This document shows positions 4,696-39,027 of a DNA stretch of 64,000 nucleotides, in pieces. The first letter of the stretch is position 1. Each line of letters begins with the position of its first letter. This stretch comes from Eledone cirrhosa (Eukaryota). The notes under the pieces were generated by a model. It saw only the letters and a program-made list of their open reading frames with translations, was not told where the DNA came from and did no database searches. Made by a program: the position numbers and the translations under genes. The stretch is taken from NCBI GenBank assembly GCA_964016885.1, contig OZ024753.1:35402001-35466000 (forward strand). The letters are read 5' to 3'.

Positions 4696-4977
4696 TGTTT
4701 CTTTTATTTGCCACCAGGGCATCAAAAGTGGGACAAGTACAATGGGGGGAGTTTACAAAACAAGGCGTCCTCAATATGGAGGAGGCAATAACAATATATA
4801 AAAATAAAATAAAATATAACAAAAAATAAAATTTATAACAAAGTCCTCAATAGAGAGGAGGCGCCTTGGGGGGTCGCACACACCCCCGAAAAAAAGTGTG
4901 CAACCCTTTTCCTCAGGAGCACAGAGAAGGGGTGCTCCCTTGGTCTTTCATCTTCCTCACCTATAGTCTAATATAGA
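4696..4977 (-). mobile_element. Tx1-clade LINE, 5'-truncated 3'UTR-only copy (subfamily A)
   Basis: Closely matches 10164-10445; flanked both sides by (GATA)n. Confidence 0.9.
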
Positions 4978-4991
4978 TAGATAGATAGATA

Positions 4992-5973
4992 TATTTCTTT
5001 TATTTGCCACTAGGGCATCAAAAGTGGGACAAGTACAAAGGGGGGAGTTTACACAAAAAGGCGTCCTCAATAAGGAGGAGGCAATAACAAAATATAAAAA
5101 TAAAATAAGATATAACAAAAAATAAAATTTTTAACAAAATCCTCAATAGAGAGGAGGCGCCTTGGGGGGTCGCACACACCCCCGAAAAAAGTGTGCAACC
5201 CTTCTCCTCAGGAGCACAGAGAAGGGGTGCTCCCTTGGTCTTTCATCTTCCTCACCTATAGTCTGATGTAGAGTGAAGGCCCATTCACACGGGCCATTCT
5301 CGCCACTTTCACCCATCTTTCATAGAAACGGCTGGGGTGCAGCACCTCTCTCTCCATCCTGATCCTTCTTCCGAAATGATATCGGAAGAAACGGACCAGT
5401 TGTTGGCCAGAGAGAAAGGTGCCTGACCTCAGTCCTTTCAGACGCGTCCACCATACAACCTCTTTCGCCATGGCTATTACGCACAGAAACACCGCCTCTG
5501 CTTCATCTTTGAAGGGGGGAGGCGGCTTGATCATTACGATAGACTCGGTGGTCAACCGGATCGGTTCCACCCTTGACAGCAGTTGTTCGACATAGCCCCA
5601 CAGATCGGCTACGCCCGAGCAGTGTACCAATGCGTGTGCAACGGTTTCCTCGTCGCACACGCATCTGGGACAGATCTTTTTGGCGGGGTCCCTACCCGGG
5701 CGCCCGTGTCTGTAGAGCCTTTCTCGAACGGGTAAAGCCCCTCGGTAGCACTGCCAGGCCAGGGACTTCTGGAAGTTGTCCATAGGTCCCGGCCTGAATG
5801 TCCTACCGAACAGGCTGGCCAGTTCGTCCTCCTCCATGTCTAGGGCTTCTCCGAGGGCGTCGTCGCACCTGCTGCGTACCAGCCCTCTATAGAATGTTGC
5901 GGTGGAGTCTCCACTGATAACCGGATCCGCCTGCCAGAGGGCGGTGAGCGCCTGGGCACACTCGGTGTGCCAG
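4992..5973 (-). mobile_element. Tx1-clade LINE, 5'-truncated ~1 kb copy (subfamily A)
   Basis: Near-identical to 10164-11143; ORF 5256-5837 encodes the CCHC C-terminus (CPRCVCDEETVAHALVHC); (GATA)n on both sides. Confidence 0.95.
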
Positions 5974-6002
5974 GATAGATAGATAGACAGATAGATAGAT
6001 AG

Positions 6003-6430
6003 ATTTCTTTATTAGCCACAAGGGCGCAACAAGAAAGGGGACAATACAAAGACATGCCGGGGATTTTACATACAGTGTGTAAAAATATAAAAACAAACAA
6101 TTTCAACAATCGAAATCCCCAATAGGGGGGAGGCGCCACAAATGGGTTGTTTAATACCCCGTCGATAGAACAACCCTCAACCCGAGGAGCGTGTTGTGCA
6201 AGTGCTCCTTTCTTCCTTTTGCTCTCTTCCTCAACCTACAGGCTTATAAACAGAGAAGGCCCAATCACTCGGGCCATTTTCGCTTCATTCACCCACCTTT
6301 CAGTAAATTTACTGGGGTGCAGTGCCTCTCTCTCCACCCTGATTCTCCTTCTAAAGTGATACTTAAAGAAGGGAATCAATTGTTGTCCGGAGAGAAAGGC
6401 ATCTGTCCTCAGTCCTCTCAACCTCGTCCT
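6003..6430 (-). mobile_element. Tx1-clade LINE, 5'-truncated copy of diverged subfamily B
   Basis: ORF 6236-6421 (RGLRTDAFLSGQQLIPFFKYHFRRRIRVERE...) is homologous to the ORF2 C-terminus; different 3'UTR; (GATA)n on both sides. Confidence 0.9.
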
Positions 6431-8179
6431 AGATAGATAGATAGATAGAGAGAATATAGCTCAAAGTATTACCAGACATTAAAAAAAACGAAACGATTGC
6501 TGTTGATCTGACGTTATGCAATCAGTAATATTTATGAGGATACAGGAAACTATAATACTCATTAAATAGACAAGTCCATGGCTGCTACAATATCACGTGA
6601 TCACACATAAGAAAGCTCAGGATATACATTTCTATACACAGTCTTTCATTTTGAAATTCTTTCAGAGACCTATCGAAATTCTATTTGCGTCGCTTTATAT
6701 TATTACACACAAACACACGTATATATATATATATATATATATATATATATATATATATATATATATATATATATATATATATATATATATAGGGGCGGCA
6801 TGGCCTCAGTCGGATGGCTGGAACAGGTAAAATAATATATATATATAGATATATAGCAGAAGTGCTTTTTAAAGTCTGTCTCAATAATTATCGATTATAA
6901 TTAATCGCTACAGAAGCTGTAATCAATATCGATGTATGATTTTATTCGCTACATTTCCTATTTTCCGCTCTCTTTCATCCAGGTTGTACTTCTACGCCGC
7001 CATTAATATTTGTACATATTGTATATATCAACGTCTATTTATTAACTGCAATCAATATTTCTATATGGCACACATACAGAAAGAATTACATACTTATATA
7101 AATATATAAGCACACACATATGAGTGTTTATGTTTATATATATATATATATATATATATCAAATGAAGCAACGGGGTAAAGGACCCGCGTTGTTCCCTGT
7201 AATATAATGAGCTCAAGGAAAGTTTTCCGGGCTCTTCAAAATATATAGGAGAGAATAAATGAAAAGAACATGTTTTCATTACAGTGAAAGACAAAAACTG
7301 TTAATGTTTTCCTTATATTTCTAAACACTCGTTTTTAGTAACAACACAGTACCTTGTCCCTTCTAAATTACATGGTGGCTGCCAACTCGTTTTCGAGTAC
7401 GGCCACTACTTTATATCCATGTAGGAGAACCCCTACCGATGCGCTGAACGAGTGTGACTTTTTAGTCCAGCCAGCAACTTGAAAACTCTGGTACAAACAC
7501 TACACTTGTGACAATTATTGACACATAGTGCTGGGCCCATGGTACCATGTGACGACAAGTGCAGAGAGATCTCCAGATATAAAGCAATGCCTGTGCTGTG
7601 AAGCTTTTATAGTGAGCAAAGGCACTGCACAAAGCCAGTCCCACTCTCTTAACCAAGATGATATTTACCAAAAAGAACAAGTCAACATCATTGGAAACCA
7701 TCAGGGTTGCAGGTGTTATATCAGAGTTTTCCTTCTAGAATTCTGCCTTGACAAAGGCTAAGGGGTCATCTCTCCCGGTGATTTTGGATGGCCATTGACT
7801 CTTACATACATACACACACACACACACAAATACATACATACATACATACATACATACATACATACATACATACATACATACATACATACATACTACACAC
7901 ATATATATATATACAGTAATTCTTTTTCAAATACGAAAACAGATAATGGTAGGTGAAGAAGTTATAACGAGATTATTTACAATAAACAGTACATAACGGT
8001 ACTTTTAAAAATTAAAAAAAAAAAAGCCTGTCTTCCTTAATATGAAAGTTCATGTATACACGTAGAGCAAAAAAAGGACATTGAAAATAAAACCAAACGC
8101 TGTTAATTATATCATATCATATTTTAATTGGCATATGATTTATCCATCTTATTGACTATATATGAACTATACACGTGTA

Positions 8180-8350
8180 GACTCCTGCCATTCTAATACT
8201 GGTGGCTGAGTTCAGATCTAGCTGTCGATACGATCGGAGCTCAGCCGTCGGGGTCCTTAACCTTTTCATATTACCCACTCTACTACCCCAAGTATCGAGT
8301 ACTCTGGTGGGTTATGCTCCACCTGGTATCTTATCACACCCTTTCTGATA
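8180..8350 (+). mobile_element. Penelope-like non-autonomous fragment (family P2)
   Basis: GAGCTCAGCCGTCGGGGTCCT...TACCCACTCTACTACC... shared with 34490 and 36945 copies (first motif also at ~20805); ends in (TA)n. Confidence 0.6.
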
Positions 8351-37142: not shown

Positions 37143-37893
37143 ATATATATATATATATATATATAGAGAGAGAGAGAGAGAGAGAGAGAATAGAGAGAGT
37201 GTCAGCAGTGTTGAGACCGGGGAACCATTGATCATGGGAGTGCTCAATGAATGGGGAGATGTAGAGTGGCGCTGTGGTCAGGATTTTACCTCTCTCTCTC
37301 TCGCTCTCTCTCTCTCATATATACATACATATATATATATATATATATATATATACACACACACACATATATACACTTATAAACATAGATGTGTGTGTGT
37401 GTGTGTGTGACAGAAAGAGAAAGAAAAATGGTTGGATTTCATTTATCTTCTCTGATTCGCCGCTTCTAATATCATCACCATCATTAAATGAATACACCCC
37501 CTCCCACTCCCTCATATACACACTCCCACATTCTCACACACATACACACTCCCACATTCTCACACACACATACACACTCCCACACACGCATACACCACAC
37601 TCCCACATCCTCACACACATACACACTCCCATATTTTCACACACACATACACACTCCCACATTCTCGCACACATACACACTCCCACATTCTCACACACAC
37701 ATACACACTCCCACATTCTCACACACATAGTTACTCCCACTCTCACATATACACACACCTATGTATATACACACCCACGGGAATCCAGGCGTGAATATGG
37801 ATCCGAGTACTTAGATATTTGTAAAGGTGGATGGTTAGATAGGTAGACATATAGACAGCTGTGTGGATAAATAGATAGATAGATAGATAGATA

Positions 37894-38474
37894 TGTTTCT
37901 TTATTAGCCACAGGGGCACGAAAGAAGGGAACAAGTACAAAGGGGGAAGTTTACATACAATAAAAACGTGTAAAATGTTATCACAAATGCAATTTATAAA
38001 ATTAGTCGATTTTCCCCAATAGGGGGAGACAGTTCATATGGGTAACACATACCCCCGAAAAAATGTGCAACCCTCATCTCCAGGAGTACGAAGAGTTTGT
38101 ACTCCTTTCCTCTCCTCCTCCTTAACCTACAGGCTGATATAGAGAGAAGGCCCATTCACTCGAGCCATTCTCGCCACTTTCACCCACCTTTCATAAAACT
38201 TGCTGGGGTACAGCACCTCTCTCTCCACCTGACTCTTCTTCTAAAGTGGTATTTGAAAAAAAGAATCAGTTGTTGGCCGGAGAGAAAGGGTGTCTGACCT
38301 CAGCCCTTTCAACCTTGTCCACCATACAACCTCTTTCGCCATAGCTATCACACAAAGGAAAACCGCCTCTCCTTCGTTTTTGAAGGAGGGTGGCGGTTTG
38401 ATCATGACAATGGACTCGGTGGTCAACCGGATTGGTCCCACCCGCGACAATAGTCGTTCTACATAGCTCCACAG
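37894..38474 (-). mobile_element. Tx1-clade LINE, 5'-truncated copy of subfamily C
   Basis: ORF 38241-38450 (SRVGPIRLTTESIVMIKPPP...) is homologous to ORF2, with frameshifts; distinct 3'UTR; (GATA)n on both sides. Confidence 0.9.
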
Positions 38475-38635
38475 TAGATGGATAGATAGATAGATAGATA
38501 GATAGATAGATAGATAGATCGATAGATAGATAGATCGATAGCTGGTTAGAAGATAGATAGATATATAGAAAGATAGATAGCTTGGTGGATAGAAAGCCGG
38601 GTGGATAGATGGATAGTTAGATAGAAAGATAGATA

Positions 38636-38676
38636 TATTTCTTTATTTGCCACAGGGGCACAAAAGATGGGGACAA
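38636..38676 (-). mobile_element. Tx1-clade 3' stub (older)
   Basis: GATAGATA|TATTTCTTTATTTGCCACAGGGGCACAAAAGATGGGGACAA. Confidence 0.8.
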
Positions 38677-38684
38677 GATAGATA

Positions 38685-38812
38685 AGTTTCTTTTTATTTG
38701 CCACCAGGGCATCAAAGAGTGGGACAAGTACAATGGGGGGAGTTTACATAAAAAGGCGTCCTCACTAAGGAGGAGGCAATAACAAAATATAAAAATATAA
38801 AATATAACAAAA
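38685..38812 (-). mobile_element. Tx1-clade subfamily A 3' stub (younger), 16-bp TSD
   Basis: TSD GGGGACAAGATAGATA at 38669-38684 and 38813-38828. Confidence 0.85.
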
Positions 38813-39027
38813 GGGGACAAGATAGATAGCCGGGTGGATAGATGGATAGGGGTGTTAGATCAAGGGAGGGTACGTAGAAAGAACAGTTGTTATAGAAGAG
38901 GTCGTCAGCATTGGGAAAAATAATAATGAACAAAAAAAATAATAATTCAATAAATAAATTAAAATAACAACAATAATAACAACAATAATAATAATAAATC
39001 ATAAAAAAGAGAGGCAGTCGACATAGG

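Follow-up and report, generated by a model that had tools for sequence, protein, structure and literature searches.

A Tx1-type retrotransposon family with a strong preference for GATA repeats in the octopod Eledone cirrhosa

Insertion targets recorded for the Tx1 clade, in the available text of the source, are Tx1D, U2, (TC)n, (TTC)n, (TTCC)n, (TTTC)n, Mariner, long terminal repeat (LTR) and Harbinger sequences, with a family counted as target-specific when its target stands in more than 20% of flanks (PMC4494074). ACAY, AC, TC, TTC and TAA targets are recorded in a 2013 review, which in its accessible part describes the way microsatellites are targeted as 'not well understood' (PMC3812793). 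According to the available portion of a report on Tx1L, in vitro nicking by its apurinic-type endonuclease (APE) is confined almost entirely to the target, a hairpin loop is implicated, and loop grafts were partly informative (PMC1950540). Here we describe a Tx1-type retrotransposon family that inserts preferentially at GATA repeats in Eledone cirrhosa, found in a 64-kb stretch of contig OZ024753.1 (the window, whose positions are used below) within a 3.0-Gb assembly.

Several sources record L1-Tx1 elements from cephalopods or molluscs, but their available parts name no target (PMC13282606, PMC8967140, PMC10294476), and 13 recently active L1-Tx1 families were counted in Octopus vulgaris, likewise with no target mentioned in the accessible text. 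Our literature search, made largely without subscription journals and Repbase Reports (where the chance of a note is about one in four), found no GATA- or AAT-targeting Tx1. The first-pass annotation of the window likewise named no described GATA-specific Tx1 in molluscs.

Junction preference in the window and genome-wide

The window contains eight element 3' ends, all on the minus strand and at the places given by the first-pass annotation. At each terminus the plus strand reads AGATA, two variable bases (NN) and then TTTC(T)TTTATT, the element's 3' end reading AATAAA(A)GAAA-NN on the minus strand. Three or more terminal types are present, in line with the subfamilies originally proposed: A (4696, 4992, 10164 and 38685), B (6003 and 27693) and C (37894 and 38636). 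The earlier description of these ends as independent did not hold, since the eight insertions share four loci, comprising two head-to-tail clusters (4696/4992/6002 and 37894/38636/38685), the copy at 10164 and the stub at 27693; they are therefore not eight independent target choices. All eight ends lie on the minus strand because all 15 runs of (GATA)≥3 in the window are on the plus strand (15/15), each at most 260 bp from an element end.

Genome-wide ends were collected as exact matches to terminal cores (a 25-base core for subfamily A and a pooled B/C core) and set against a background of 200 kb of evenly spaced genome on both strands (400,000 positions). AGATA precedes 12,752 of 14,788 3' ends (86%; background 0.15%), including 2975 of 3506 subfamily A ends and 9777 of 11,282 pooled B/C ends, a share of 85–87% in the two pooled counts. 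Subfamily A ends are balanced between strands (1706 vs 1800) and follow GATAGATA in 2203 cases and ATATA in 382, so that 63% lie at two or more GATA units, 22% at a lone AGATA, 11% at ATATA and 4% at other sequences. The background held 614 AGATA, 9498 ATATA and 25 GATAGATA words, making ATATA 15 times commoner than AGATA, and relative to these frequencies AGATA is enriched about 550-fold, lone AGATA about 150-fold and ATATA about 5-fold. Enrichment of GATAGATA was about 10,000-fold (95% interval 6,800–15,500, from only 25 background words), a value that is partly circular because insertions inflate it if they lengthen arrays.

A logo of the flanks, one of the checks proposed at first pass, was built from 93 of the first 100 subfamily A ends listed, all on a single contig (C1), with four cluster neighbours and the last three ends omitted. 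Positions -5, -3, -2 and -1 are invariant (93/93), -4 is G in 78, T in 14 and A in one, and A at -7 (90) and T at -6 (85) complete the motif ATA(G/T)ATA. Among these ends, 39 follow at least three GATA units and eight follow a (TA)≥4 run; insertions at satellite and unique sites are also present, and copies cluster in repeat-rich stretches. The determinant is this short 7-bp motif, best realised in GATA arrays. With GATAGATA in 63% and AGATA in 85–87% of flanks, the family lies above the 20% used to define target specificity, and strict insertion into (GATA)n arrays alone is ruled out by the lone AGATA (22%), ATATA (11%), satellite and unique sites. The original claim of specific insertion into (GATA)n thus stands as a very strong preference (86% AGATA) and falls as exclusivity, while the reported avoidance of (TA)n and (CA)n tracts is true of the window (0/8) but not of the genome, where 382 of 3506 subfamily A ends lie at ATATA. 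The value of the element as an insertion tool was overstated because a target of 5–7 bp is short and common in any genome.

Two non-periodic target-site duplications in the window end in AGATA (18 bp at 10164 and 16 bp at 38685), and those at five other window copies are periodic or short in a script test run without the 27693 stub. We sampled 126 insertions, namely the 93 ends and 33 of 40 full-length copies with a 3' end found in range. Exact non-periodic duplications ending at the junction were detected in 23 of these, with a median length of 17 bp, an ATA end and AGATA or ATATA inside; the following base is G in 16 of the 23, and in none of the 23 is the duplication separated from the element end by additional GATA units. 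The remaining insertions lie mostly in pure repeats that are uninformative for duplication. Fourteen offset rows first taken as informative were dropped (12 out-of-phase pure GATA runs, a compound satellite at L035 and a 17-bp duplication with one mismatch at L082). Of 53 copies at GATAGATA sites, 37 have GATAGATA no more than 45 nt from the 5' junction as well, against 1 of 14 copies at ATATA sites, and at two satellite insertions (L030, L055) the uninterrupted neighbouring units display the empty site. No joint spanning the insertion was listed when Logan contigs from four sequencing runs were compared with 10088–13400, a comparison that skipped the flanking repeats and so bears neither way on empty alleles; no RNA data set was listed as carrying the sequence. 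Because the duplication includes AGATA, which recurs at the 5' junction, the evidence supports GATA as a target present before insertion, as opposed to a tail of the element, the distinction that the first-pass annotation had left to be checked.

Element structure, classification and a sister lineage

Full-length copies are about 5.8 kb long with both open reading frames (ORF1 and ORF2) open, encoding 592 and 1145 amino acids in copy L046 and 564 and 1145 in copy L070. ORF2 has the domain order APE, reverse transcriptase (RT) and zf-RVT, and both ORF1 types carry a CX2CX4HX4C zinc knuckle; a CCHC knuckle in ORF1 is a feature of the Tx1 clade. Pfam searches matched PF00078 (RT; E 5e-26) and PF03372 (endonuclease; above cut-off), with PF13966 slightly under cut-off and a PF00098 match to the ORF1 knuckle of L070 only (E 0.003, under cut-off). 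In the sampled loci, 20 ORF2 frames run through all 1153 codons without a stop. Fifteen of the 93 copies are full-length or nearly so, the median length is 2.3 kb and 5' truncations are many; the pattern used to find full-length copies caught one 5' type only (82 matches) and does not give a total count. A poly(A) tail is absent and the junction register is fixed. Thus RT, a common 3' end, variable 5' truncation and target-site duplications mark a non-LTR retrotransposon that moves by target-primed reverse transcription, and the N-terminal APE and C-terminal zinc finger of ORF2 are features of the L1/Tx1 group.

The two 5' types represented by L046 and L070 are 99% identical in RT and C-terminus and 88% in the endonuclease, with differing ORF1, which suggests recombination or 5' replacement. 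The two terminal bases of the element vary (TG, TA, AG, GA, AA, CA, AC, TC), partly by subfamily, with TG in 52 of 53 ends of one variant. We also noted an intron-like stretch of 67–68 nt in the short 5' untranslated region (UTR; L046:6120-6188, minus strand), running from GTAAGT to TTTKGTAG, with both ends kept in 47 of 48 copies and no spliced copy seen among the 48.

The predicted endonuclease fold (predicted local distance difference test, pLDDT, 80.5) has the L1 endonuclease as its closest match (E 9e-14), and residues N10, E39, D141, N143, D202 and H227, which we take to be catalytic, are invariant in 26 sequences. A sequence search with the endonuclease domain alone found no solved structure; the best match of ORF2 among solved structures is human L1 ORF2p (168 bits; R2, 72 bits). 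Among named proteins the closest comes from Argonauta hians, with 67% identity across the RT region, consistent with an octopod host. The RT tree comprised 38 rows rooted on plant L1s, with references named by annotation and without curated Tx1L or mammalian L1. In it the lineage falls within clades of 28 rows (96/94) and 24 rows (96/91) containing proteins named 'transposon TX1 149 kDa protein', and the plant L1s and an L1-like group fall apart from this TX1-named clade. It forms a separate branch outside a 100/100 fish clade of a Danio pol-like protein with Q76IM5 and Q76IM4 (presumably Kibi/Koshi-type deposits), and its RT is 35–38% identical to the fish Tx1-named proteins. Judged by annotation-named references, classification as a Tx1-type APE non-LTR retrotransposon is supported: the RT tree, PF03372, fold match and ORF1 knuckle agree with the original assignment, and the 5.8-kb copy L046 supplies the full-length element with ORF1 and APE that it had called for.

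Further relatives (P0002-P0046 and others) are about 40% identical, and the protein atlas returned generic RT/APE clusters only. A metagenome search gave 71 loci with full-length matches of 21–30% identity; the ends of 18 of these loci carry no GATA array, a result that is uninformative for the Eledone lineage. Two metagenome contigs (L266, L267) hold APE-RT elements at 21% identity with flank sequence repeated at both contig ends, possibly tandem or site-specific insertions. Two candidate families were rejected: a repeat first read as a GATA-tailed element proved to be the 5' end of subfamily D, and a supposed distant GATA-site family proved to be an inverted fragment in two copies. An unclassified dispersed repeat of at least 250–350 bp starts directly after TA or GATA runs at L004, L058, L102, L115, L196 and L221.

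Cataloguing related ORF2 pieces in the sampled DNA revealed a sister lineage, F, which ends in AATAAAGAAA-NN like the GATA family and is followed by (ATT)n, and which has no copies in the 64-kb window. AATAAT precedes 6871 of its 7882 ends, and AGATA none of 30 sampled. Many full-length copies of about 6 kb lie in head-to-tail arrays (L345:380-6403, L335, L336, L339 and L346, contig C1), with an ORF2 of APE-RT-zf order and N-terminal APE that is 76% identical to subfamily A in RT and 61% in the endonuclease. The GATA subfamilies A, D and E group together in a single supported clade, with lineage F next to it; their endonucleases are 80–97% identical and all three keep the GATA preference, and 44 endonuclease differences are fixed between the GATA and AAT lineages. 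Because a single reference copy misplaces many junctions, the distinction between target and tail is less firm for lineage F, in which AATAAT lies within 40 nt at only 10 of 24 called 5' junctions and one clear non-periodic duplication was found (L320). Since the sister uses AATAAT with the same end structure, specificity would have changed after the split.

Site choice, possible array growth and the window copies

Long GATA arrays were represented by the first 30 (GATA)≥5 matches on contig C1, with four merged to leave 26, the pattern excluding G in the four preceding bases. A same-orientation family copy lies within 200 bp of 17 of the 26; the corresponding figures are 4 of 200 for random positions and 0 of 63 for (TA)≥10 arrays. 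Genome-wide the pattern has about 17,200 matches, a total of similar magnitude to that of the element ends. In 17 of 93 copies and 16 of 33 full-length copies, a further 3' end of the family is found no more than 200 nt from the 5' junction. Full-length copies often have additional GA/GATA separating their 5' end from the duplication (L070, L095, L162, L166, L170 and L183). This suggests that transcripts arise in the repeat upstream of the donor and that new targets are seeded, which we offer as a hypothesis because the statistics are modest and selection-biased; the counts behind it are 11 of 13 full-length against 8 of 35 truncated copies (p=2e-4) and, for at least five extra bases, 6 of 6 against 6 of 16 (p=0.015; rank test p=0.06).

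The family's own APE endonuclease is probably the main determinant of the ATA(G/T)ATA site, a reading based partly on the in vitro specificity of the Tx1L endonuclease, in the available part of that report (PMC1950540). On the established model of target-primed reverse transcription, the APE would nick the GATA-reading strand at or within 1–3 nt of ATAGATA^G, the 3' end released there would serve as primer for reverse transcription from an RNA end just beyond AAUAAAAGAAA-NN, and a second nick about 9–25 bp away would yield the duplication. More tentatively, each insertion may duplicate part of the array while full-length copies add GA/GATA units at the 5' side, and the family may in this way lengthen and seed its own targets and build head-to-tail clusters.

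Several observations weigh against this account. In the hairpin loop region, which we place by an assumed alignment to L1, only S194I and the anchor-side T187M are fixed between the two lineages, and the loop is poorly modelled (pLDDT <50 at 189–198). No AGATA or ATATA lies within 40 nt of 20 of the 93 5' junctions, several of which enter rearranged element DNA. As for the arrays, 9 of the 26 long ones have no nearby element, none of four short arrays in background DNA had one (in a narrower library), 33 of the full-length copies were chosen by a pattern ending in AGA that biases the seeding statistics, and L169 and L182 lack extra bases. In addition, Tx1L nicking in vitro is described, in the accessible text, as looser than the in vivo sites, with RNA-target pairing a possible extra filter (PMC1950540).

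Such pairing is the basis of the main rival, in which the RNA picks the site: transcripts reading through into (TATC)n would pair through a UAUCU end with AGATA at loosely specific nicks, and the donor flank would be inherited. By sequence alone the invariant ATA is not separable into target or RNA origin. Cleavage usually falls 10–30 nt from AATAAA, which here sits only 7 nt from the element end, so the RNA end is probably in the flank. That no poly(A) is copied, that the invariant bases are all primer-side, that extra GA/GATA at full-length 5' ends hints at transcribed flanks and that the hairpin loop is nearly identical in the GATA and AAT lineages would also fit. Register slips would be expected, however, yet no extra GATA unit appears in the 23 clear cases, and (TA)n donors should found TA-targeting lines, whereas AGATA stays at 85–87% though ATATA words outnumber it 15-fold. 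Moreover, in 16 of 23 cases the duplication is followed by G, at a position outside any primer, a count confounded by GATA arrays. We consider this explanation unlikely, though it deserves more weight than the following two.

If (TATC)n were instead a tail of the element itself, supplied with each insertion as in tail-repeat LINEs (long interspersed nuclear elements), with no target preference, nearly all 3' ends would adjoin AGATA, as they do, and CR1/L3 LINEs are described as seeding microsatellites in snakes in the available text (PMC8303610). But AGATA or ATATA lies inside the duplication and again at the 5' junction (10164, 38685; 23/126), GATAGATA recurs near the 5' junction in 37 of 53 cases against 1 of 14 at ATATA sites, and insertions at TA sites and satellites gain no 3' GATA. 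A tail is refuted for the clear cases and highly improbable overall. Even less credible is near-random insertion with better survival or assembly of copies in GATA-rich regions. The clustering of copies in repeat-rich stretches accords with it, but it is refuted by a fixed, base-precise register with four positions invariant in 93 of 93 ends. The presence of an element within 200 bp of 17 of 26 GATA arrays, but of only 4 in 200 random positions and of none of the 63 (TA)≥10 tracts, and the different precise motif of the sister lineage speak against it as well.

The window copies, all on the minus strand, are mostly 5'-truncated. In the first cluster, a (GATA)n target array (4620..4695, plus strand) adjoins a 3'-UTR-only subfamily A copy (4696..4972; 95% identical to L046), followed by a truncated subfamily A copy whose ORF2 C-terminus (zf-RVT) is open (4992..5973; 99%) and a truncated subfamily B copy with GATA runs on both sides (6002..6430). 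The 2.9-kb truncated subfamily A copy at 10164..13081 is 99.4% identical to L046 and its open frame holds RT and zf-RVT, truncation having removed the endonuclease. Its 18-bp non-periodic duplication ends in AGATA (10146..10163, plus strand, adjoining the 3' end) and is repeated at the 5' junction (13082..13099, plus strand). The 28-bp subfamily B stub at 27693..27720 is joined to GATAGATA, as first described, and followed by a (GA)42 run; it shows no duplication by eye. In the second cluster, a truncated subfamily C copy between GATA arrays (37894..38477) is separated by a degenerate (GATA)n array (38481..38635, plus strand) from a 41-bp subfamily C-like stub with a 10-bp duplication (38636..38676). 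A subfamily A-like stub (38685..38812) landed at the 5' junction of the latter; its 16-bp non-periodic duplication (38813..38828, plus strand) copies 38669-38684 and takes in the older stub's end.

Other repeats in the window include a 60-bp tandem array of about 80 units (42600-47400) with a long stop-free frame (43492-47667, plus strand). This array is likely a satellite, as its Pfam matches are summed over repeats and no single stretch passes. We also observed an interstitial telomere-like (GGTTAG)5.5 repeat at 39026-39058 and a 202-bp repeat resembling a short interspersed nuclear element, present as a tandem dimer at 19916-20319 and again at 13244-13307; no tRNA gene was called in it, and its relatives are extremely abundant in the sequencing runs and flank many sampled loci.

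Comparison with known systems

Sequence-specific APE endonucleases include those of Tx1L and R1Bm. The family bears on the way APE endonucleases acquire and alter such specificity, as one genome contains two sister lineages whose precise targets differ, with thousands of insertions defining each motif. Many ORF2 copies are intact and 44 endonuclease differences are fixed, so swaps can test specificity directly. A tetranucleotide repeat class is also tied to one element, about two thirds of the sampled long GATA arrays adjoining a copy, which matters for users of GATA markers in the octopod group. We tentatively suggest that an octopod Tx1 branch may have acquired targeting independently of Kibi and Koshi, switched between GATA and AAT via its endonuclease, seeded its own targets and become the main source or occupant of long GATA arrays, although this combined picture is somewhat doubtful.

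As far as the literature search reached, the family represents a new target, and likely a separate origin, within the known class of microsatellite-targeting Tx1 elements. Teleost Kibi (TC)n and Koshi (TTC)n and crocodilian Tx1 (TTCC)n/(TTTC)n are likewise APE elements of the clade in microsatellites, with related families differing in repeat unit, as described in the available text (PMC4494074, PMC3812793). Unlike those of Kibi and Koshi, the Eledone targets are A/T-rich (GATA, AAT), with lone AGATA and ATATA tolerated, and with 35–38% RT identity to the fish Tx1-named proteins the lineage stands on a separate branch. Dong belongs to the R4 group and has a restriction-like endonuclease. Its (TAA)n target (PMC3812793) is that of the AAT sister lineage, and Dong-R4 is abundant in Octopus (PMC13282606), both as given in the accessible portions, but the sister lineage carries an N-terminal APE.

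Xenopus Tx1L, Keno (U2 snRNA) and Tx1-Mar, compared by description only and from partial text, are alike in clade, enzyme layout and sequence-specific insertion (PMC4494074, PMC1950540). Their sites are longer, unique and located in a transposon or an RNA gene, whereas the Eledone family inserts at a 7-bp repeat motif and does so at about 15,000 places. Human L1 is similar in ORF2 layout, endonuclease fold, 5' truncation and duplications, but the Eledone family has no poly(A) tail, its target is not TTTT/AA and its ORF1 has a CCHC knuckle. Repeat expansion by snake CR1-L3 LINEs reportedly works through a repeated tail. Their copies likewise adjoin ATAG-type repeats in the available part of the source (PMC8303610), but there the LINEs are reported to drive expansion of the repeat, whereas in Eledone the repeat lies inside the target-site duplication.

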